64,000 nucleotides of DNA, taken from positions 633 to 64,632 of the forward strand of contig JACPMR010000011.1 in NCBI GenBank assembly GCA_016185945.1, read 5' to 3'. A model generated the notes under the pieces. The model was not told the origin of the DNA, ran no database searches, and saw only the letters and a list, made by a program, of their open reading frames with translations. Source of the stretch: Candidatus Woesearchaeota archaeon (lineage in GTDB: Archaea; Nanobdellota; Nanobdellia; Woesearchaeales; GW2011-AR4). Positions within the stretch are counted from its first letter, which is position 1. Every line of letters begins with the position of its first letter. The position numbers and the translations under genes are program-made. Positions 2,640-61,104 of the stretch are shown one piece after another.

Positions 2640-3343
2640 GCAGCATGCTTGAACAAAACATATCTCTTGTCTACACTGACATAATCTGATTTTGTCCTCG
2701 CATCAAGCTTGTCAAGCAAAGTGTTTAATGCAATGAATGAAACAGTAATGCCGCCTGCAAACAACAATCTCTCAAAAATCACAACTGGGATTAAAGCAAC
2801 CCATGCTGCTGGTGTCATTGGCACTATGTAATTCCACATTGCACCTCCGACAGAATGCGCTGTAAAAGTTGCTCCCAAGCTTTTTAGGAATGCTCTTTCC
2901 CCGTACTTTTTCGGCAGCAATTTGATAATTATCGGTATTGTCCAGAACAATGTGAAGAACCAGACTTGCCTGCCGACTGGGTGAGCAACAAACAATATAA
3001 TTGCTGCAACTGGAACCAAGAAACTTACCTTGTCATATTTTTTAGTTCCAAAGTACCATGCTGCAAAAAGCATCGGCAATAACCTCAAGGTATTGACTAA
3101 AGTAAATGCTTTACCTAATAACAGATAACTAGACACTTCTGCAATCAAAACCGACAAAACTCCTACAACTGAGCCGAGAAACGCTCCTGCAACCGGGCCG
3201 AAAAACTGAAACAAAGTGAAGAACTGGTTTTCAGCCCCAACAAGCTTTGAGAAATTTATCCTGTCGCCAACAAAAACCAAAACGCTGAAAATAAGCAAAA
3301 ATATCAATCCCTTTGCCGTAATCAGTTTATTTAATTTCATCAT
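2636..3343 (-). CDS. Polytopic membrane protein, possibly a substrate-capture or ECF S-component-like transporter; 4-nt overlap with lrp.
   Basis: About 6 predicted hydrophobic helices. No diagnostic motif. Confidence 0.35.
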   Translation of the reverse strand: MMKLNKLITAKGLIFLLIFSVLVFVGDRINFSKLVGAENQFFTLFQFFGPVAGAFLGSVVGVLSVLIAEVSSYLLLGKAFTLVNTLRLLPMLFAAWYFGTKKYDKVSFLVPVAAIILFVAHPVGRQVWFFTLFWTIPIIIKLLPKKYGERAFLKSLGATFTAHSVGGAMWNYIVPMTPAAWVALIPVVIFERLLFAGGITVSFIALNTLLDKLDARTKSDYVSVDKRYVLFKHAA

Positions 3344-3367
3344 ACCACCAATGGCTTTGGTAAATAG

Positions 3368-4252
3368 TCAGTTTAAATAATTTTCTGTTTTAAAATCTGC
3401 AAGAAGGTTCACTAACTCTTTGGCCAATTCAAGGTTATGAAGCGTTATATACTCTATGTTCAATCCCACTGGTATTTTTACATCAATTCCATCAAGAAAA
3501 CTGAAAATTTTGTTTACTAATTCTATTATCACATTTATGGACTCTTTGCCTGTGTCATCTGCAAACCTTAATCTGCTTTCTGTTTTCTCCGTCATATGAG
3601 CTCCAAGCCATTTAATAAACGCAATGTCCTCAGAATTGGACACAGGCGAAAAGCTCAAATAAAATTTTGCAGGCTTTAAATTAAATTCATTACATTTTCT
3701 TGAGTATTCTTTTAGAACATTTACAATTTTATCTGACTCAAACAAAACCTGGCTGGTGAAAAAATTGCATCCAGAAGCTGTTTTGCTTATTAGCCTGTCA
3801 GCCTCATTATCCCTTTCAGGTATGAAAATGTTGCCAAAATTGATTTTTTTGTTCTTTGCAATTGAATTTGCTTCTATAATGCTTGGCCCAGGGTACTCAA
3901 AAGAATTGATTTTCTGCCCCACAAACACAAAGTTTTTGATTCCAAATTTGCTGATGCTTTCATCAAGCCATTGCTCAAATTTGTCTTTAGAATTGTGGTG
4001 CACAACAACTGTATTAATTATTATCTCTCTGCCGCATCTTTCCCTTAGCTTTAATCCAAACTCCCTAGTATCAATGTTTTTATAATAAGGCCGTCCAAGA
4101 TGATTTTCTTCAACTATTTCAGGAATGTTTAATGTTGTGACATTTTTCATGCCTTCCAAGGCATTCGTTATTTTGTCTATAATCTTTCTCGCATACGCCT
4201 CAGAGGCGCTTTTTGTGCATGGAATAACCTCAAAAACTATGCCTCCTTTCAT
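3368..4252 (-). CDS. Methylenetetrahydrofolate reductase (MetF)-like TIM-barrel protein.
   Basis: Length and the motif CNFFTSQVLFESD resemble MetF QFFFD. Sits next to metE. Confidence 0.4.
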   Translation of the reverse strand: MKGGIVFEVIPCTKSASEAYARKIIDKITNALEGMKNVTTLNIPEIVEENHLGRPYYKNIDTREFGLKLRERCGREIIINTVVVHHNSKDKFEQWLDESISKFGIKNFVFVGQKINSFEYPGPSIIEANSIAKNKKINFGNIFIPERDNEADRLISKTASGCNFFTSQVLFESDKIVNVLKEYSRKCNEFNLKPAKFYLSFSPVSNSEDIAFIKWLGAHMTEKTESRLRFADDTGKESINVIIELVNKIFSFLDGIDVKIPVGLNIEYITLHNLELAKELVNLLADFKTENYLN

Positions 4253-5421
4253 TTTTGTGATTCTTTTCTTGCCAGCTTTGCCCCTTCAACCATGCTTTGC
4301 AATTTGGCGAATGCAACTTCCAAGCTTCTTGTCCTTAATCCGCAATCAGGATTTACATATATCTTATCCTCACCTAAGACTTTAGAAGCATATAGAATTC
4401 TGTCTCTCACCAATTCAGGCGGCTCAATAAAATCTGTATGGACGTTTAGTACTCCTAAACCTATTCTGCCTGGCACATTATGCTCTTTAAACAAATCCAA
4501 AATCCTGTAGCCGATTCTTTTTTGTCTGTCCATGCCAAGATTTGTAGTATCGGCGTTTGCAAACTCCCATGCGTATTGATAGCAGTTCTTCATTTCAAGA
4601 ATGCCTGGGAAAAATACCTTATAGTCGCTGAAGCACATATGGATGCTTGCCTTTACATCCAAGCCTTTAACAGACTCATTGAAAGTTTCAACTACCAAAT
4701 CTACTTCATCTGGATAAGTAGTGGCAGCAGGCTCATCAATTTGCACCCATTTTGCGCCATTTTTGACAAGGGCTGCAATATTGGGCCTGATAACATTTTT
4801 TGCAAGCGCCAAAGCCATTTCCCTTCTGTCTGTTTTTTCAGAGCCAAACAGTCCAAAAATATCAAAATCCTTATTTTTCTCTCCATAAAACTCATTGTAA
4901 GACCATTCTGCCAATGTATACGCCCCCGTTATAGGCACTTTTAATTCATGCTCTGTCTTATCCTTCAAAAAAAGAAACTCTTCAAGATGATATGGGAGTT
5001 TGAATGACGGCTCTGCTATGCATGCTGCTTTCCTGTACTTCATTACATCAAATGACCTTACCAAACCTTTAAATTCAAAACCATCTACATCACTGATAGG
5101 ATCTTCATACATCTCAACCCTTGTTTGCTCTCCGTCATAAATGATGTCAAGCCCAGCCTTTTCCAAAAATCCAAGCGCAAATATCTGTGATTCTTCTTTT
5201 AATTGTCTCCTTAGTTCATCTTTATCTTTTTCCTGTCCGTTTTTTATTTTTTGTATGATATCAACTACAATTGGTATTCTACCTTGTAGATTCAGCTTTG
5301 TGCACCATTTTTTAAGCTCCTCAATGTCATTTTGAGTTGTCTTTCCTGTCAATCCTTTAACACGCCAAGACGGCTTTTGCAAGCTTCCGATTTCCTGTGT
5401 CGGGAATAAGGGCAATGTCAT
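4249..5421 (-). CDS. metE: Cobalamin-independent methionine synthase, archaeal short form (MetE C-terminal catalytic domain type).
   Basis: N-terminal PTQEIGSLQKP and the overall UroD-like MetE catalytic-domain pattern. Confidence 0.8.
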   Translation of the reverse strand: MTLPLFPTQEIGSLQKPSWRVKGLTGKTTQNDIEELKKWCTKLNLQGRIPIVVDIIQKIKNGQEKDKDELRRQLKEESQIFALGFLEKAGLDIIYDGEQTRVEMYEDPISDVDGFEFKGLVRSFDVMKYRKAACIAEPSFKLPYHLEEFLFLKDKTEHELKVPITGAYTLAEWSYNEFYGEKNKDFDIFGLFGSEKTDRREMALALAKNVIRPNIAALVKNGAKWVQIDEPAATTYPDEVDLVVETFNESVKGLDVKASIHMCFSDYKVFFPGILEMKNCYQYAWEFANADTTNLGMDRQKRIGYRILDLFKEHNVPGRIGLGVLNVHTDFIEPPELVRDRILYASKVLGEDKIYVNPDCGLRTRSLEVAFAKLQSMVEGAKLARKESQK

Positions 5422-5422
5422 T

Positions 5423-6412
5423 TTAGTCCCTCAATAAGTGTGCTGCCTTTGCCAAATTCTCGATTTTCTTTATCGCTATTTGCTGTGGAACTAACTCCAA
5501 GGGCCTGTTAGGCACCAATGCTAAACCTTCGGGATTTATTGTGTCTTGTATTTGTCTTGCATACTTAACGATGGCTTCAGGCTTCTCAATCAATGAATTT
5601 TTCGAATTTATTATTCCAATTTCAAGAAATTTTTTAGAATCTGCAAACTTTCGGATATTTGTTGCATAAGCATCAAAACCTATCCTGTTGACAGGCAGTT
5701 CAAGCAATTCTGGCAGAAATTTGGATACATCCCCATTGTATAAATGCAAACTTGTAATAGCTTTAACGTCTTTAGTCGCTATGCGCAAAGACTCGTTTAT
5801 AATGCTCCAAAATGATTTTGCTTCATCAGCGTATGCAATGCAAGGCTCGTTAAATTGCACAAAAGAGATTTTGCTTTCTTTCTCTAATCTATGTATTTCG
5901 TTATTTAGAATTTTTGCTATGTTTAATAACACCTCAGCAAAAATATCATTTTTTATTGTTCCATCTTCATTGCGATGAATGCCATCTGAAAGATATGCTA
6001 AAGCAAACGGGCTTGGCAGGATTATTTTTCTTTTTCCTTCTTGGGTTTTGTTTATAAATTCTGTATCGATGATTTCTTTGCCATTTCCAATTTTATTAAG
6101 AATTATGGGTTTCCTGTAAAAGGTATTTGTGTATATTTGCCTTGTTACAGGATTTTCATTGGCGTTGCTGTTCTCCCTGTGCAACTCAAGTGCAATAGCT
6201 ATTTGCCTCAGAAAATCATCCCAGAACAACTGCCCGTCTGTAACGTAATCAAGCCCAAGGTTATGCTGTAATTCTATAAGCTCTATAGTCTCTTTCTCAA
6301 GTATTTTATAGTAATCATCTTTTGTTACTCTCCCTTTTAGCCAGCTGCTTCCGGATTCCAATGCAAAATCGGATCTTGGAAATATGCCGTTTAGATATGC
6401 TTCTACATTCAT
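5423..6412 (-). CDS. MetE N-terminal-domain-like paralog, encoded as a separate gene.
   Basis: UroD/MetE-like fold signature (DGQLFWDDF...). Adjacent to metE. Confidence 0.55.
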   Translation of the reverse strand: MNVEAYLNGIFPRSDFALESGSSWLKGRVTKDDYYKILEKETIELIELQHNLGLDYVTDGQLFWDDFLRQIAIALELHRENSNANENPVTRQIYTNTFYRKPIILNKIGNGKEIIDTEFINKTQEGKRKIILPSPFALAYLSDGIHRNEDGTIKNDIFAEVLLNIAKILNNEIHRLEKESKISFVQFNEPCIAYADEAKSFWSIINESLRIATKDVKAITSLHLYNGDVSKFLPELLELPVNRIGFDAYATNIRKFADSKKFLEIGIINSKNSLIEKPEAIVKYARQIQDTINPEGLALVPNRPLELVPQQIAIKKIENLAKAAHLLRD

Positions 6413-6794: not shown

Positions 6795-7304
6795 TTAAAA
6801 ATTCTCTGTCAGATAAACAGAATAAGTTTTGCCTTTAGCTTCTCTTTTAACCAAATGCTTTTTCTCAAAATCTGTCAGTATTTGGCTTACTTTTGCTTTT
6901 GATAAGTCTGTCCTGTACCTCAAAGTTGATTGTGTAATACCACTCTGTTCCTTGATTGCCTTTAGCACCTTCTGCTCGTTTTCATCCATTGCTTTCAATA
7001 TCAATCCGAATTTATCCTCTCCTATCTTCATGTTCTTTTCGTCTTCCAGCCTTTTTAGAATTGCTTCCTCGCTTGTGCTGAAAAACAGCAGGTAAACACC
7101 CAATGCTGCAATAAAAGAAATCAAACCGACTGCTATATGGCTTAAGCCAAGCAATGACTCAACCCTCTGGCACTCGCTTGTTGGATAACACTGCAATGCA
7201 GTTGTCTGCCTGCCTAAAACACCCAAAAATCCAAATGCCAATATGGTTGCAACTATGCTGAATGACAGAATCACAAACCCCAGCTTCTTATTTTCCATCG
7301 ACAT
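6795..7304 (-). CDS. Membrane-anchored winged-helix (MarR/PadR-like) transcriptional regulator.
   Basis: Two N-terminal TM helices followed by a wHTH (SGITQSTLRYRTDLSKAKVSQILTDFEKKHLVKRE). Confidence 0.5.
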   Translation of the reverse strand: MSMENKKLGFVILSFSIVATILAFGFLGVLGRQTTALQCYPTSECQRVESLLGLSHIAVGLISFIAALGVYLLFFSTSEEAILKRLEDEKNMKIGEDKFGLILKAMDENEQKVLKAIKEQSGITQSTLRYRTDLSKAKVSQILTDFEKKHLVKREAKGKTYSVYLTENF

Positions 7305-7497
7305 CTGTTATATTTATTTTGCAGTATATAAATTTTTTGGAGGATTTAAGCAGATTGTGTTAAATGGGTTCCATCAAGCGGCATAAACCTTTAACATTTA
7401 GGGATGATATACCAGTATTGGTATACACAATACTGAATACCACCAGACAATAAAACCAGCACAACCTTTTTAAACCACTACTTTTTACGATGTGCGG

Positions 7498-9588
7498 GTG
7501 AAAAAATTCAGAACATTAAAAAGACAGAAAATACTAGTAACATCTGCATTGCCGTACGCCAACGGGCCGATCCACGTAGGGCACCTAGTTGAATACATAC
7601 AGACAGACATATTTGTCAGATTTCTAAGATTAATTGAAGAAGATGTTTTGTATGTCTGCGCTGACGACACCCACGGAGCGCCTATTGAAATAAAGGCAGC
7701 AGAGTTAAAAATAACCCCAGAGCAATTAATTGCAGATGTCTATAAGGAGCATGTTCAGGACTTCAAGGATTTCTCAATCAGCTTTGACAATTACTACACA
7801 ACAAACAGCCCGGAAAACAAGCATTACAGCGATTTAATATTCCTGAGATTAAAGAATAAAGGCTACATTTACACAAAAGACATTGAAGTTACTTATTGCG
7901 AAAACTGCAAGAGAACATTGCCGGACAGGTATGTCAAGTGAAAATGCCCAAAGTGCAATGCCCCTAATCAATATGGGGATGTTTGCGAGCAATGCAATGC
8001 AGCTTACAAAACCATTGATTTAATAGAGCCGTATTGTGCAATATGCAAAAACAAGCCAATCAGAAAAACTTCAACCCACTATTTCTTCCAATTAAGCAAA
8101 TTCTCAAAAAAGCTTGAGTCATGGCTGACAAAAAACAAAAACTTGCAGCCGGAAGTAAAAAATTTTGTCCTGAACTGGATAAAAAATGGATTGGAGGACT
8201 GGAACATAAGCAGGGACGGCCCTTACTTTGGCTTCAAGATTCCAGGGGAAGAAAACAAGTACTACTATGTTTGGCTCGATGCCCCAATCGGCTACATTGC
8301 AAGCACCGATAATTATTGCAAGAAGCACGGCTTGAAGACAGAAGATTACTGGAACAGCAAGGATGCGGGAATCTATCATTTCATCGGAAAGGACATTACT
8401 TACTTCCATCTCTTGTTCTGGCCTGCAATGTTGATGGGTGCTGATTTTGAATTGCCTCAAAGCGTTTATGTCCATGGCTTTTTGACAGTCAACGGCGAGA
8501 AGATGAGCAAAAGCCGGGGAACTTTCTTCACCGCAAGGGAATTTCTGCAAAAATACAACCCGGAATATCTTAGGTTTTACTATGCGAGTTTGTTGAGCAG
8601 GAATTTGTCGGATATAGATTTAAGTTTTAATGATTTCAGGAAAAAAATCAATAATGAATTGGCTTCAAACATTGGAAATTTCTGCTACAGGGTTCTGAAT
8701 TTCCTGAACAAGCATTTTGGCGGGCAGGTCAATGGCTTGGACAATAACAAGCAACTAACCAATGAAATCAAAGAAAAAATCAAAAACATTGAAAAAAATT
8801 ATCATGACTTGAATTTCAATGAAGCTGTCAAGGATATATTGCATATTTCTTCGCTCGGCAACAAGTATTTCCAGGAAAGCGAGCCATGGAAATTGATTAA
8901 AGAAGACAGAGAAAAAGTTAATAAAATTCTTGGCTTGTGCGTGAATATTGTCAAAAATTTAAGCATTTTAATACAGCCAATTCTGCCGGATTTTTCGTCA
9001 AAGCTGCAGCAGCAATTAAATCTCAAAAACCTTAACTGGAGCAGCCTTGGTTTTGAACTGAAAAAACATAAAATAGGAAAAGAGGAGATTTTAATCAATA
9101 AAATTGAGGAGGAAGGGCAAAAGCCGATATTCCCGCTTAATTTAAAAGTTGCAAAGATAGTTGAAGTAAGGCAACATCCGAATGCCGACAAGCTCAGCGT
9201 CTTGGATATTGACTTAGGCGCTGAAAAAAGGCAGATAGTTGCTGGATTAGTTGGACACTACTCAAATGAGGAATTGAAGAACAAAAAAATAATTGTAATA
9301 ACCAATTTGAAATATGCAAAGTTAAGGGGGGTTGAAAGCCAGGGAATGCTGCTTGCCGGCGACGACGGAAAGAATGTCGGCTTATTAACTGTTGAGAAAA
9401 GCAATCCCGGCGACAGGGTTTATTTTGAAGGGTACGAAACAGGCAGGGAAGAAACAAGCTTTGACAGCTTTCAGAAGATAAGGATGCATGTGCAGAGTGG
9501 CAAGGCATATTTTGAAGGCAGGGAATTGAAAACAGACAAGGAGATTGTAAAAGTGGAGAAAGCAGCAGACGGAGCAAGAGTCAGATAG
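7498..9588 (+). CDS. metG: Methionyl-tRNA synthetase with a C-terminal EMAP/Trbp111 tRNA-binding domain. The reading frame is interrupted by a single in-frame TGA at 7939..7941 (ORF-track fragments 7492..7941 and 8143..9588 are one frame).
   Basis: HIGH motif PYANGPIHVGH; KMSKS motif; zinc knuckle KCPKC...CEQC colinear with E. coli MetRS; tRNA-binding C-terminus. TGA aligns to the conserved Gly of VKGTCPKC. Confidence 0.85.
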
Positions 9589-10396
9589 CTTTTGATGCCT
9601 TTTCTATTTCTTTTTGAGTATATCCCTCCTTTAAAAGAGTGTCTTTTATTTGCTGCAAGGTAAATCCTTTCCTTATGCTTTCATCAAAATATTGCTTTAA
9701 AGAACTTATTATCTTGTTTTCTTTATTGATTTTCAAAAATAAGAAGATCAATGTGAGAATAACAATGCCGAACATTAAGAATATCCAATTCGGCATGTTT
9801 GGTGGTTGATTTGAAAACCCTGCTCTGTTTTCTGTATTTAATGAACTTATTTCAATCTCCATGACTTTTGAATTTTTTAAATTGTAAATTTCAATCCTGC
9901 CGGCATTATCGCTATGCGGTATATATACTTGATAATTTTTATTTTCCAAAAAGCTATAATAAAATGAATAGATGTCTGAGCCATCAATGGAGACTATCTT
10001 AACTAAATAGCCGGATTTATCAGGATATTCTGCTTTCTCATCGGATTCCATGACTTGGATTTTATTGAATGCGAGAGAGCCGTCATTGTAATTGACATCC
10101 AGCACAAAATATTTTTCAGGATTGCTTACTGCAAAAGCGGTTATTTTTTGTTGTTGATTTTCATCTAAGATTGAGTAAAACGAAAAAATTGAAACAATGA
10201 ATAAAAATGAAATTAAAACAGCATAATTTTTGACAAACTCCAATTCAGCGTGTTTTTTCACTAAAACACCAACATAATCTTCATCGTATCCGTAATCAAC
10301 CAAAACTTTTCTTACAGCATGCTTGGAGTAACCTTTACTTAAATGCTCCTTTATGTACATTTTCAGTTTTTTGTCTATCCTATTTTTGTCCAGCAT
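9581..10396 (-). CDS. Hypothetical membrane protein with a duplicated short alpha-helical GY-containing domain at both termini.
   Basis: N-terminal LSKGYSKHAVRKVLVDYGY and C-terminal IRKGFTLQQIKDTLLKEGYT repeats; 2 TM segments. Confidence 0.35.
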   Translation of the reverse strand: MLDKNRIDKKLKMYIKEHLSKGYSKHAVRKVLVDYGYDEDYVGVLVKKHAELEFVKNYAVLISFLFIVSIFSFYSILDENQQQKITAFAVSNPEKYFVLDVNYNDGSLAFNKIQVMESDEKAEYPDKSGYLVKIVSIDGSDIYSFYYSFLENKNYQVYIPHSDNAGRIEIYNLKNSKVMEIEISSLNTENRAGFSNQPPNMPNWIFLMFGIVILTLIFLFLKINKENKIISSLKQYFDESIRKGFTLQQIKDTLLKEGYTQKEIEKASKAI

Positions 10397-10543
10397 TTTT
10401 TAACAAAGAGACTAGGTTTTTTGACTTGCCGATGTATTTGACTACTTTCTGCTTTACCTTTCCATCCACTCTTGTGCTTTTTACAAGGTAATAATAGTAA
10501 TTGTTGTTGATTTTCTTGACTCTGAGGAATACCATAGATGATT

Positions 10544-10743
10544 TTAGGCATTACATATATTTAAATGTTGGTATTATTTTAGATTTTTAGGCATTACTTT
10601 AAATATAAGATTAGGCACTACTCAATTGGTTAAAGTTTTATCGAGTTAGGCATTACAGAAGTGTATTTGAATGTTTTAGGCACTACAAGAACACAAACTA
10701 TAATGATAGGATAAAAATGTATTTAGGCACTACAATAAAGATT
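10544..10743 (+). repeat. Array of six direct repeats TTAGGCA(C/T)TAC with irregular spacing, upstream of the DUF1858-IscA gene. Candidate regulator binding-site array.
   Basis: Motif starts at 10544, 10587, 10611, 10646, 10676 and 10733. Confidence 0.6.
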
Positions 10744-10793
10744 AAATTACCAACAAAAACATTTAAATATCAAAGCACTTAACAATTGTTAAC

Positions 10794-11375
10794 ATGGAAC
10801 AAGAAGCTAAACAAGTAAAACAAATCATAACAAAAGACATGACTATTGGTGATGTTGTAGCTAAATACCCAGCTTGCATAGAAGTATTGATGTCTGCAGG
10901 GGTTCATTGCGTTGGATGTCATGTTTCTTACTTGGAAACTCTTGAGCAGGGATTTAAAGGGCATGGAATGGCTGATGAGGAAGTGGATGCAGTAATTGCC
11001 AAGCTAAACGCAGCTGTTGAAGAGTCAAAGCTTGATGAAGGCAAAGATTTCATAATCACAAGCAAAGCAGCTGAAAAATTAAGGGAAGTTTTGAAGGAAA
11101 ACAATAAGGAAGGCAGTGGCTTGAGGGTTGAGATTGTGCCGGGCGGCTGTTCCGGTTTCCAATATGGCTTGGAGCTTGACGACAACACAACTGACTTGGA
11201 TTTGATTTTTGAGGAAAAAGGGGTAAAAATAATAGTGAACAAAGAAAACATGCAGTTCCTGAAAGGCGCAAAGCTCGACTATGTTGACAGCCTGCAGGGG
11301 GCTGGCTTCAAGATAAGCAATCCAAATGTCAAGAGCGGCAGCAGCTGCGGTTGCGGGCAGAGTTTTGAGTATTAA
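10794..11375 (+). CDS. Fusion of a DUF1858 (hybrid-cluster-associated redox disulfide) domain and a HesB/IscA A-type Fe-S carrier.
   Basis: N-terminal MTIGDVVAKYP...HCVGCHVS; C-terminal GGCSGFQYG and SSCGCGQSF signatures of IscA/ErpA. Confidence 0.7.
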   Translation: MEQEAKQVKQIITKDMTIGDVVAKYPACIEVLMSAGVHCVGCHVSYLETLEQGFKGHGMADEEVDAVIAKLNAAVEESKLDEGKDFIITSKAAEKLREVLKENNKEGSGLRVEIVPGGCSGFQYGLELDDNTTDLDLIFEEKGVKIIVNKENMQFLKGAKLDYVDSLQGAGFKISNPNVKSGSSCGCGQSFEY

Positions 11376-12758: not shown

Positions 12759-13285
12759 TTTATTATTCTCCGCGTTTTAAGTCCGCATGACTTTTTAGAA
12801 TAGAGTTTTCACTAATCGAAAACTCAAAACAAAATTTTTAACAGAATTATCTGGAAAACCAATAACCCGTCGAGATTTTGAATATTTTGATATCTAACAA
12901 AAACAAGAATTTAGAAACTCTGCCAAAGGCAATCACTCTGTTTCATAAAAATTAGAAAGCATATTAAGTATATAAAACTTTTTATTTTTTTCTGCAAAAT
13001 AAGTTTATAAAAAATAGTTTATCCTTCATGTCAAAAATATTTTCAAAAATTTTTCTAAATAATTGAAAAATTTAAATTTACAAAATATTTTCATACTCTA
13101 ATAAGATGCAAAGTTTTTTCTCAACTAAAGGATGCAAGAATAGAGATTTTATTTTCCATATAGCAAATAAATAAAATAATCAGTATACATTTCTCTATAT
13201 TAATATACAAAATCGGAACATTTAAATATAACTTATGAGCAGAAATGTTAAGCGGTTGTTTCTGTGTGTTAAAAGAGGTGATTTG

Positions 13286-14224
13286 ATGAGAAAGATTGCC
13301 ATATTCAACCAGAAAGGAGGTGTAGGCAAGACAACAACCGCTGTCAACCTTGCTGCAGGCCTTTCAAGAAACAGCAAAAGGGTTCTTTTGATTGACTTGG
13401 ATCCTCAGGGCGACATAAGCGCATGCCAAAACATAAACTCGCAATACAACATCTATCATTTCTTGATGGAAAACGCCGATTTGCAGGACTGCACAAGCAG
13501 GCTTGGCAAAAACCTTGACATTATACATGCAGACCACAAGCTAGCTGATGCAGAGCAGCAGATTGCAAAGGAAAAAGACAGCGTTAACTTTCTTAAAAAT
13601 AGGTTTTCCTTAAAGCTTGATTATGACTATCTACTACTTGATTGCCCTCCATCATGGAGGTTGCTTAACAAAAATGTTTTGCTTTATGCAAGCGAAGTGA
13701 TAATACCCACATCAGCTGATGTGCTCGGCTATGGTTCTCTGGAAAAGACGGTAAAAAGGATTACAGAATTCAACAAAATGAATGGACACAAAATTTTAGT
13801 CAGTTCTATCCTGCCCACAATGTTTGACAAAAGAAACAGGATTTGCAATGAAATATCGCTAAAGATGAAAAAGGAATTCACGCCATTGCTTGTTGCAGAG
13901 CCTATAAGGATTAATTCAAAGCTCAAAGAAGCGCCAAAAGCAAAGATGTCGATTTTTACCTATGACAAAAAATCAACAGGAGCAGAGGACTACTGGAAAT
14001 TTACAAAGTTAATTTTGGAAAACGAGCATATGTTTGACTTAAATCTGCCACAACCACAGCGAGAAAAGGCAATGAAAGAATACTTTATCGACGGCAAAAA
14101 AAGGGAGTTGATGATTGTTAACAACAAGGTAACTTTCGGATTCAAGTTTATAAATTTCGCAAACTCGATGAAAACCCACTTCGAAGAAAACCATAAAAAG
14201 CTGAAGAGGTTTGGATATGCTTAA
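13286..14224 (+). CDS. ParA/MinD-family ATPase with a C-terminal extension.
   Basis: Deviant Walker A KGGVGKTTTAVNLA. AGGTG RBS upstream of the internal ATG chosen as start. Confidence 0.8.
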   Translation: MRKIAIFNQKGGVGKTTTAVNLAAGLSRNSKRVLLIDLDPQGDISACQNINSQYNIYHFLMENADLQDCTSRLGKNLDIIHADHKLADAEQQIAKEKDSVNFLKNRFSLKLDYDYLLLDCPPSWRLLNKNVLLYASEVIIPTSADVLGYGSLEKTVKRITEFNKMNGHKILVSSILPTMFDKRNRICNEISLKMKKEFTPLLVAEPIRINSKLKEAPKAKMSIFTYDKKSTGAEDYWKFTKLILENEHMFDLNLPQPQREKAMKEYFIDGKKRELMIVNNKVTFGFKFINFANSMKTHFEENHKKLKRFGYA

Positions 14225-59819: not shown

Positions 59820-60505
59820 TTTGTCTCTATTCTCAGTATCTGCTCTATTTCTTCCCTTGACACCGCGCACCCGTTTAGTTTTACTCCCCATAAGACGCTT
59901 TCCAGCAGGTTTTTCCTTGCATCGGGTATTTTTGTAACATAGCTGTCCAAAAATCCATGCTCGTATGCAATTGCAGCCAACTCGACAGAGCGTATCGCCC
60001 TTATCCCATCCACAGCATTTCTAAACTCTTTTAAATTACTTTCGTTTACATTTATCGGAGTATGCAATGTTTTTTTAAGAATTTCAAGGATTATCCTGGG
60101 ATTTTCAACCAAAAGCCGTGTTGTTTTTTCGTCAATGACAATTGCATCAGAGCCAAGTTCCAGCGCAGCTGCTATCACGGACATTTCGGCGTAATGGACA
60201 ATCTTCATGTAATTTCCAAATGCCTTGAATATTTCATTCGCCGTACTTAACAACATTGGCGTTTTCTGTCTTATCGAGATGTTGTCCACAACTTCCAATA
60301 TTCCCCTTTCTATCAGTGTCTCGACTTGTATAGCCTCAAACTTGAATTTTCTTGTTTCAAGAGGCCTGTCAACCAATTCCCGCCTTACAGCATCAGTAAT
60401 ATAAAACTCTCCATCAAATTTTTTCTTCAGTGGCTCAAGAATCCAAAGCAGGTTGTTTGTTGCCAGGCTTATTATCGGTCCTGCATCAAATATTAATGAT
60501 TTCAT
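59816..60505 (-). CDS. PIN-domain-like predicted nuclease.
   Basis: N-terminal MKSLIFDAGPIISLA acidic beta-strand and downstream conserved Asp/Glu positions. Confidence 0.4.
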   Translation of the reverse strand: MKSLIFDAGPIISLATNNLLWILEPLKKKFDGEFYITDAVRRELVDRPLETRKFKFEAIQVETLIERGILEVVDNISIRQKTPMLLSTANEIFKAFGNYMKIVHYAEMSVIAAALELGSDAIVIDEKTTRLLVENPRIILEILKKTLHTPINVNESNLKEFRNAVDGIRAIRSVELAAIAYEHGFLDSYVTKIPDARKNLLESVLWGVKLNGCAVSREEIEQILRIETK

Positions 60506-61104
60506 GAAAATAATCCTCTCGTGAATTTTAACCTGCTTGTAACATTAACCGGCTCGCTGAACTGGTCTATTATGGTTGTTTTGCCGAGGTAATGCATAAG
60601 CTCCCATTGCGAAATGCCTAAAACTTCTGCTGCCCTTGCAACGGAAATGCCGTGCTCGCAGAGCTTTGAGCCCTTTTTTATCTGGGCCTGATTTATGACC
60701 TCATGGATATATAATTTTAATTTTTCATCCATTGTCCGTATGAAATTAAATATGTTTTTTATTGATTTTCTGAATTGTTCGTCTTCATTATTATTTAAAC
60801 TTGAAATGCAAGAATTTAGCATGTCCAAGACTTTTCCATAATCCAAATCTTTCTGTTTTCTGTCTATTATTTTTGACAAAGCATAAATAAGAATAGCCAC
60901 AGAAATGGAGTCTTCGTCCTGAAAAACGCTTGCATTATGAATTACATGATTGCTTAGTTTCTTTACTTCAACAACATCAGTTTCTTCCTTTACTTTCAGG
61001 ATTTCAACAAGCTCGTTCAAGACAGCCAATATGTCTCTTTTGATTATGTCATGCATCGGAGAAATTCTTGAAATATTGTTTATATAAAGCTTTCTATAAA
61101 ACAA
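60502..61104 (-). CDS. Hypothetical protein with a C-terminal HTH; overlaps the PIN-like gene by 4 nt (possible antitoxin or regulator partner).
   Basis: GISVARAAEVLGISQWELMHYLGKT helix-turn-helix. Confidence 0.35.
   Translation of the reverse strand: MFYRKLYINNISRISPMHDIIKRDILAVLNELVEILKVKEETDVVEVKKLSNHVIHNASVFQDEDSISVAILIYALSKIIDRKQKDLDYGKVLDMLNSCISSLNNNEDEQFRKSIKNIFNFIRTMDEKLKLYIHEVINQAQIKKGSKLCEHGISVARAAEVLGISQWELMHYLGKTTIIDQFSEPVNVTSRLKFTRGLFS

Follow-up and report, generated by a model that had tools for sequence, protein, structure and literature searches.

Which protein reads the six short direct repeats that stand between two divergent genes of a Woesearchaeota chromosome, and which of the two genes do they serve? 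The repeats (boxes) are found in a 64,000-nucleotide stretch of contig JACPMR010000011.1 of Candidatus Woesearchaeota archaeon (positions 633 to 64,632 of the forward strand), and this whole stretch is referred to as the window hereafter. They occupy the divergent intergenic region between a gene for a 51-residue protein, here called small51, and a gene in which DUF1858 is fused to an IscA/HesB domain. The explanation that we favour, and consider fairly probable on the strength of comparative sequence analysis, is that the six boxes are binding sites of the divergently encoded small51, which would be an autoregulated regulator derived from a transposase DNA-binding domain. The results computed directly are the array and its conservation, its fixed geometry at the small gene, the co-variation of box and protein, the purifying selection on the gene and the homology of its product to transposase N-termini.

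The motif TTAGGCAYTAC was found in six exact copies, all on the + strand, starting at positions 10544, 10587, 10611, 10646, 10676 and 10723. An array of six copies had already been described in an earlier reading of this DNA that used its letters alone (the sequence-only reading), and it is real: the 10-mer TAGGCAYTAC occurs six times against 0.15 occurrences expected in 64 kb, none of 100 dinucleotide-preserving shuffles of the window reaches six, and no match to it exists in the rest of the window. The possibility that the motif is simply as frequent as the background, which had been named as what would refute the array, thus fails. When one mismatch is allowed five further sites appear elsewhere in the window, against about 1.8 expected in total. 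Two one-mismatch boxes placed 22 nt apart (60589-60621, - strand) lie inside a coding open reading frame (ORF; 60502-61104, - strand) and may be a chance occurrence.

Some details of the earlier description needed correction. The start-to-start spacings are 43, 24, 35, 30 and 47 bp; the first four had been given correctly but the last had been given as 57, and the array had been extended to 10743, 10 nt too far, as the last box stops at 10733/10734. The 11-bp motif was recovered, although the conserved unit is 12 bp long, with A at position 12 in four of the six copies of the window and in 71% of 252 copies elsewhere. Extra T's do precede four of the six copies, as had been noticed; over the 252 copies no flanking position of the box is conserved. 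The boxes of the window, all of them asymmetric direct repeats, are the following.

10544..10555, + strand: Box 1, TTAGGCATTACA, 8 nt from the small51 ATG (10535), between the small51 TATA and the start
10587..10598, + strand: Box 2, TTAGGCATTACT
10611..10622, + strand: Box 3, TTAGGCACTACT
10646..10657, + strand: Box 4, TTAGGCATTACA
10676..10687, + strand: Box 5, TTAGGCACTACA, identical to the consensus of DPANN archaea
10723..10734, + strand: Box 6, TTAGGCACTACA, ending 27 nt before the TATA of the DUF1858-IscA gene

A CRISPR array is defined by repeats of at least about 23 nt, with a near-constant period and unique spacers of similar length. Here the unit has 11-12 bp, the spacings are uneven and there is no Rfam match, so that this identity was rejected, as it had been in the sequence-only reading. 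Scans of the window with Rfam (at gathering thresholds) and for tRNAs gave no match and no evidence for an RNA gene.

That earlier reading had proposed looking for a cognate regulator. A candidate is encoded directly beside the array, by a conserved gene on its other side that had been overlooked.

10380..10535, - strand: small51 gene, 51 aa, the proposed box-binding regulator; a stand-alone copy of the IS1634-family transposase N-terminal domain
10556..10566, - strand: TATATTTAAAT, TATA-like element of the small51 gene, read from the sequence; putative promoter element

The element TATATTTAAAT adjoins box 1 directly and lies about 26 nt upstream of the small51 ATG. This is the distance expected for the TATA of a leaderless archaeal gene and therefore implies a leaderless small51 mRNA. 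In NCBI an identical protein is recorded as HYX02_04745 of a Woesearchaeota metagenome-assembled genome (MAG). Its gene is under strong purifying selection, with ratios of nonsynonymous to synonymous substitution rates (dN/dS) of 0.04-0.14 against nine orthologues at dS values of 0.6-2, which indicates that the gene is real. According to its translation, small51 has no cysteine, no histidine and no sensor domain.

The same intergenic region was compared in relatives, as the sequence-only reading had suggested, by alignment of five orthologous regions (the window and loci L001, L085, L079 and L084). Box 1 together with the neighbouring TATATTTAAA(T/G)G is kept in all five. Several full boxes, some truncated ones (TTAGGCAYT) and the core promoter of the IscA gene are also kept, with AAACATTTAAATA at the IscA TATA of the orthologues, and the remainder has diverged. 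Boxes and both TATA elements are therefore common to the relatives, but each region has between 3 and 6 full boxes, with variable spacing, and the last box stands from about 27 to 60 nt away from the IscA TATA. Since box number and the distance to the IscA TATA vary, the stable association is that with the small51 promoter, and an effect on the IscA gene is uncertain.

The association was also approached from the protein. In this reverse test 80 metagenome loci were taken by protein similarity only, 74 of which had enough upstream sequence, and a box was accepted with at most one mismatch, in antisense orientation and within 400 nt upstream. At least one such box was present for 43 of the 74 homologues. 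In 33 of the 74 the nearest antisense box was 5-11 nt from the ATG, as is the case for box 1 of the window, and no homologue (0/74) had boxes downstream. Moreover, loci that seem to have no box carry subfamily-specific variants at the same position. The YYY(I/V)VEGKL subfamily, which is without the otherwise conserved R22, has the variants ATTGTGCCTAA (also with a final T) and ATTGTGCCTAT, in contrast to the usual form of the box, GTAGTGCCTAA; a relative of this subfamily has the variant GTTGTGCCTAA. Another subfamily presents the palindrome GTTGTGCCCA..TGGGCACAAC, and one of about 133 aa presents GTAGTGTGCAA..ACACTAC. In members with bacterial-type promoters the box follows TTGACA (-35) and precedes the -10 element. 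Each of at least four protein subfamilies thus has its own variant of the box at the same position, a figure in which independent contrasts were not formally counted. The box varies with the protein and, in two different promoter architectures, occupies the core of the promoter from which that protein would be expressed; both facts speak for recognition of the box by the protein. The sites are found in promoter regions, including that of the candidate itself, and at positions kept across phyla, as in autoregulated operators. The earlier proposal of an operator-like array for a DNA-binding regulator therefore gains computational support from these promoter positions.

How widely the box is distributed was evaluated in a genome collection with a single representative for each GTDB species (596 Gb), which was scanned for two boxes placed 10-40 nt apart. 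At least 119 loci with box pairs were found, whereas the number of chance pairs in 596 Gb is estimated at about ten, assuming uniform base composition. Among the matches listed, to which the neighbourhood counts that follow also refer, 92 are archaeal, nearly all of them from DPANN archaea; the hosts are Woese-, Pace-, Nano-, Iain-, Micr-, Alti- and Aenigmatarchaeota, and the GC content of the hosts ranges from 28 to 60%. The consensus over the 252 copies is TTAGGCACTACA, with C at position 8 in 96% of them. The core positions of the box were set by the search pattern, so that information can be drawn from positions 8 and 12 and from the flanks only. Boxes of one array always face the same way, and about 82 of the 92 archaeal arrays are intergenic. 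A single MAG can hold many arrays, for example at least seven loci in Iainarchaeum CSSed10_269.

A small51 homologue stands beside the array in about 25 of the loci, mostly in divergent orientation, the first box lying a few nt from the start codon of the homologue. Four phyla are represented (Woese-, Micr-, Aenigmat- and Iainarchaeota), with protein identities down to about 37-50%. The steady partner of the array across phyla is therefore the small51 gene and not the Fe-S gene. The neighbour found most often elsewhere is scpA, encoding the kleisin of the structural maintenance of chromosomes (SMC) complex (Pfam SMC_ScpA), which is present in 28 of the 92 archaeal loci; in 25 of these 28 two or three boxes lie upstream of it on the same strand. 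Under random gene neighbourhood the expected number of scpA genes is estimated at far below one. At the scpA promoters the gap between the last box and the TATA clusters at 5-6, 13-15 and 22-26 nt, and the TATA is about 29 nt from the ATG. Two or three boxes placed 5-26 nt upstream of the TATA of scpA and of other genes suggest a small regulon. Other neighbours of the arrays are genes for deoxyhypusine synthase (3 loci), DUF1858-IscA (4 close relatives of the window), winged helix-turn-helix (wHTH) proteins, IscU/NifU_N (in a Micrarchaeota MAG, L068) and PurP (in Altiarchaeota).

As a separate observation, many scpA promoters (for example L017, L041, L060, L099 and L103) contain an inverted partial box, AAGTAGTRATT, 25-30 nt upstream of the first direct box; its reverse complement ends in AYCACTACTT. 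The window array has direct boxes only.

With respect to bacteria, 26 of the 27 matches of the motif scan that are listed have no small51-like protein nearby. These 26 were not accepted as a true system, several being tandem repeats spaced by 11-15 nt and the others being treated as chance matches. The exception is L042, from an Acidobacteriaceae MAG, in which a homologue is immediately preceded, on its own strand, by four boxes spaced 12 bp apart (about 6183-6230, in the reverse-complemented locus); the protein-box pair thus occurs outside the archaea too. In the IMG/VR collection 13 viral contigs (L120-L132) have box pairs and no small51-like ORF nearby, and the giant-virus MAG contig GVMAG-M-3300023174-203 has two loci with runs of boxes at 35-nt spacing. 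Some database ORFs (L025 5618-5700, P0252 and P0133) read through arrays and give repeated VVPK or LGTT peptides; they are probably artefacts of gene calling in GC-rich DPANN genomes.

The protein belongs to a large family for which no Pfam, NCBIfam or PHROG model was found to match small51 or its relatives. There were 522 matches in a database clustered at 90%, and an exhaustive search of 1.84 billion representatives with a hidden Markov model gave 3696 matches at E<=1e-3, of which 508 reach E<=1e-10. Nearly all the matches listed have the domain at their N-terminus. A precomputed PF20586 tag on two relatives with tandem domains was discarded, since it was not reproduced at E<=1. A profile search of the PDB sequences returned only a spurious coiled-coil match, and no homologue of the domain was found in the phage collection. 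In an alignment of 74 sequences K7, Y14, Y16, Y34 and G36 are invariant, and F3, R5, I9, L17, V18, R22 and Q29 are conserved in at least 90%. Such a basic-plus-aromatic pattern is typical of nucleic-acid-binding sheets. The AlphaFold2 model built with this alignment predicts with high confidence (pLDDT 90.5) three long antiparallel strands at residues 2-9, 12-23 and 26-36 followed by a helix at 38-50. When this model was compared with the PDB by Foldseek the best matches were the single-stranded-DNA-binding domains of PC4/Sub1, and these were weak (E 0.4, TM 0.43-0.60, 14% identity); integrase arm-binding domains were weaker, at ranks 23 and 39. Tandem two-domain versions also exist (P0046 and P0047) and fit the frequent box pairs 22-24 bp apart.

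Longer proteins also contain the domain. It is N-terminal in the DNA methyltransferase DmnA; at L216 1501-2289 (Nostoc sp. HK-01 plasmid3, dmnA), annotated as an adenine DNA methyltransferase, an inverted CTTAAACTACA pair ends at the ATG. The glycyl-tRNA synthetase (GlyRS) of some Nanoarchaeota also has a small51-like domain at its N-terminus (P0195; in L100 a 539-aa ORF at about 3215-4834 of the native strand). Two boxes are present 44 nt upstream of the GlyRS gene of L100, and this synthetase may bind its own promoter.

The relation with transposases was found by tblastn of a bacterial member against annotated plasmids, which matched the extreme N-termini of two Rhodococcus IS1634-family transposases with 56-61% identity over 41 aa. 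One of them (H1), the one that was scanned, carries a DDE_Tnp_1 domain. A profile made of the archaeal small proteins only matches both Rhodococcus transposases, with E about 3e-10 in the ORF set of this analysis, and a second tblastn with the Rhodococcus N-terminus returned the same two elements only. A similar DNA site is present as well. Both elements have TTAGGTAATACA 13 and 15 nt after the stop codon, with 10 of 12 positions equal to the DPANN consensus, and an inverted copy of the box with 3 mismatches 3 nt before the ATG. Both copies lie within the outer terminal repeats GAGTTTCC.. of the elements. As the position of the box and its orientation to the ATG are the same as in the small genes, the small protein and its box are probably homologous to the head of the transposase and to its subterminal binding site. 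A search of the literature on the N-terminal domain of IS1634, on DPANN promoter motifs and on transposase-derived archaeal transcription factors found nothing relevant, and a full-text search for the box sequence retrieved unrelated primers only.

This homology raises the alternative that the array is a relic or a miniature form of an IS1634-like element, with boxes scattered by transposition, an ORF that is a truncated transposase and no function for the host. The relationship of small51 with IS1634 N-termini and the resemblance of the box to the subterminal repeat of the insertion sequence (IS) are in keeping with it, and so is Iainarchaeum CSSed10_269, in which the boxes lie within a longer multi-copy repeat, at seven or more loci often located at contig ends. 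However, the ORF is intact and selected at the dN/dS given above, with synteny kept in many Woesearchaeota, and the boxes are direct and not inverted, with no DDE domain or terminal inverted repeats. They are moreover exact at the promoters of orthologous genes (about 25 genomes for scpA and 5 for IscA) despite diverged flanks, and stand at discrete distances from the TATA. We consequently regard a relic as unlikely. An identity of the locus itself as an IS1634 insertion sequence was rejected, given in addition that the 51-aa ORF has its own stop codon and that a membrane protein gene comes next. The composite repeat of CSSed10_269 (L088, L101, L059, L112, L043, L073 and L006) consists of a 32-nt unit, TTAGGCACTACAATCGTTCGTTTCAGAAGGAT, and a hairpin, CAAACTTTTGAAC..AAAAAGTTTG, and suggests that in this genome the boxes were spread together with the repeat element.

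A second alternative takes the array for a centromere-like or SMC-loading site, analogous to parC or parS, with small51 as a centromere-binding adaptor. Short direct-repeat arrays together with a tiny autoregulated beta-sheet protein do recall ParR/parC and omega-type systems, the commonest neighbour elsewhere encodes the SMC kleisin, and in the window a ParA/MinD-type ATPase gene (13235-14224, + strand), with a C-terminal extension of about 80 aa, is found 2.5 kb from the array. Nevertheless, no ParA homologue occurs near any other array among the loci listed, and the small51 gene is paired with a gene for a membrane protein and not with an ATPase gene, so that there is no partition NTPase in the operon. 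The predicted fold, a three-stranded sheet with a helix, is not ribbon-helix-helix. Furthermore, most loci have two boxes only, just upstream of the TATA at phased distances, and several arrays per genome stand beside unrelated genes. This makes a centromere-like role decidedly improbable.

The operon just mentioned and the opposite side of the array comprise the following features.

9581..10396, - strand: gene for a 271-aa membrane protein, overlapping the small51 stop codon by 17 nt; no Pfam match
10762..10769, + strand: TTTAAATA, TATA box 32 nt upstream of the ATG of the DUF1858-IscA gene; putative promoter element
10794..11375, + strand: DUF1858 + IscA/HesB fusion gene (Pfam), the divergent neighbour of the array

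Homologues of the 271-aa membrane protein follow the small gene in L001, L005, L028, L038, L049, L071, L079, L084, L085, L089 and L115. This gene is probably in the same operon as small51 and would thus be a direct target of the autoregulation. The DUF1858-IscA neighbour is also present in L001, L079, L084 and L085.

The sequence-only reading had identified 10794-11375 as a DUF1858-IscA fusion, which Pfam upholds (DUF1858 and Fe-S_biosyn, E 2e-16 and 3e-17), and had suggested that the array could mediate metal or redox control of this Fe-S carrier gene. On this account the array would be the operator of a metal or redox sensor encoded elsewhere. It is true that the Fe-S carrier gene follows the array, that a ferritin-like gene adjoins, and that the iscU (NifU_N) gene of the Micrarchaeota MAG (L068) also has upstream boxes. 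However, the same box is found before scpA, the deoxyhypusine synthase gene and purP, the targets being mostly scpA and other genes unrelated to metals, the dominant neighbours are scpA and the small51 gene, and the candidate regulator lacks Cys, His and any sensor domain. Sensors of the Fur, DtxR, IscR, SufR and ArsR types use palindromic operators, whereas these boxes are asymmetric direct repeats. In addition, the boxes stand 27-60 nt from the IscA TATA at variable distance, and the wHTH protein encoded at 6795-7304 (DUF7343) is not linked to arrays. Control of this kind is in our view very unlikely, and that suggestion is not retained. Fe-S biogenesis may possibly be one part of a wider regulon, considering the boxes of the iscU gene in L068, and the DUF1858-IscA gene is a possible secondary target of the array.

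The weakest alternative, also named in the sequence-only reading, is that the repeats are iterons of a chromosomal, plasmid or viral replication origin; short direct repeats in an AT-rich intergenic region recall such sites, but the idea is hardly credible given that no Rep, Orc1/Cdc6 or helicase gene was found with Pfam among the 20 window ORFs scanned, that the context is one of chromosomal housekeeping genes, that there is no site-specific turning point of the GC skew, that other genomes hold many arrays each (up to seven or more per MAG), and that the boxes all face the same way, archaeal origin-recognition boxes being instead inverted pairs around an unwinding element.

The window is a piece of chromosome (GC 33-43%) with housekeeping genes such as those for methionyl-tRNA synthetase (MetRS), MetE, methylenetetrahydrofolate reductase (MTHFR), the glycine-cleavage system, RtcB and CorA. 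The MetRS gene (7492-9588, + strand) is one frame broken by a single in-frame TGA (codon 7939-7941), located at the expected conserved Gly of the DR(F/Y)VKG.CPKC zinc knuckle. This TGA could be a sequencing error, the mark of a pseudogene or a recoding event.

Returning to small51 as an autoregulated regulator, a mechanism can be proposed. The protein would bind each of the six boxes. As box 1 is placed between the TATA and the leaderless start, its occupancy should block the recruitment of RNA polymerase and thus lead to autorepression. Archaeal factors bound between the TATA and the start (MDR1, LrpA and Phr) block RNA polymerase recruitment. The five boxes 2 to 6, which face the same way, may raise local occupancy, avidity or cooperativity, and an influence, positive or negative, on the divergent DUF1858-IscA promoter, whose TATA lies 27 nt past box 6, is also possible. 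At scpA and other genes the boxes stand just upstream of the transcription factor B recognition element (BRE) and the TATA at phased distances, a position from which they could either activate or compete with TFB/TBP. The protein-box pair would in this way have been domesticated in DPANN archaea as a regulator of transcription.

Several points weigh against this proposal. DNA binding by small51 is deduced from adjacency, co-variation and homology, and its repression of its own gene, like its effect on the IscA gene, is a prediction made from these. The domain is also fused to GlyRS, to proteins with an HExxH motif and to a J-domain; its use is therefore general, and a protein that contains it need not be a transcription factor. 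The link of the DNA site with transposases rests on two related Rhodococcus elements. Box spacings have a periodicity of 10-10.5 bp in the motif-ascertained set (p about 5e-4), but the same helical periodicity is absent from arrays beside small51 genes (p 0.4), so that strict phasing is not claimed for the array of the window. Finally, the region of L084 has no distal boxes, and this, along with the variable separation between the IscA TATA and the last box, makes an effect on the IscA gene doubtful.

On the broader claim, that a protein of about 50 residues, descended from or ancestral to the head of IS1634 transposases, forms with a 12-bp box an unrecognised transcription network over several DPANN phyla and some bacteria, we find ourselves evenly balanced. 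If it is true, the most conserved targets of the network are scpA and the protein's own promoter, and the array of the window is among its largest examples. DPANN archaea have tiny genomes with few recognisable transcription factors, and their regulation is almost uncharted. A 12-bp box kept exact over phyla at 28-60% GC and a conserved, unannotated protein of 50 aa would give them a testable pair of regulator and operator, as well as a first candidate regulon consisting of scpA, the deoxyhypusine synthase gene (dhs), Fe-S assembly genes and the regulator itself. It would also provide a candidate function and a target sequence for an unmodelled N-terminal domain that thousands of protein clusters share, among them those of IS1634 transposases, of a DNA methyltransferase and of the GlyRS of DPANN archaea.

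Compared with known systems, the autoregulated operator array and the transposase-derived DNA-binding domain are familiar, whereas the protein family, the DPANN box and the apparent regulon headed by scpA appear to be undescribed. The proposed system shares with ParR/parC and omega-type systems a tiny autoregulated protein with short direct-repeat arrays in its own promoter region, but those are ribbon-helix-helix dimers with a partition ATPase, and here the fold is another one and no ATPase is linked. It is similar to three-stranded-sheet binders (the arm domains of lambda, Tn916 and HPI/P4-like integrases, and AP2/ERF) in its small sheet with a helix and in its asymmetric direct-repeat sites of about 11-12 bp; however, there is no significant match of sequence or structure with them (E >1) and no recombinase is attached here. 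The IS1634 family has in common with it a homologous protein domain, a subterminal repeat to which the box is identical at 10 of 12 positions, and an antisense box a few nt before the ATG. It differs in that here the boxes form direct-repeat arrays at host promoters, without DDE domain or terminal inverted repeats, and the gene is vertically conserved under purifying selection. In IS1 InsA and IS911 OrfA stand-alone N-terminal DNA-binding parts of the transposase repress their own promoter. The likeness is that of a truncated transposase part which binds a site overlapping its own promoter, with repression being proposed in the present case; the difference is that those are helix-turn-helix or zinc-finger proteins acting on their own element, and that here a beta-sheet module apparently serves scpA, dhs and iscA/iscU. 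Last, domesticated transposon factors such as FHY3/FAR1, ZBED and THAP, and TldR, a TnpB-derived transcription factor of prokaryotes (PMC10705468), also reuse a DNA-targeting module of a transposon at host promoters. TldR is RNA-guided and the eukaryotic cases have other folds, whereas in the DPANN archaea a protein of about 50 aa is proposed to read a 12-bp box directly. If the link with transposases is true, this would be a rare case in prokaryotes of the co-domestication of a transposase DNA-binding domain together with its transposon-end site.

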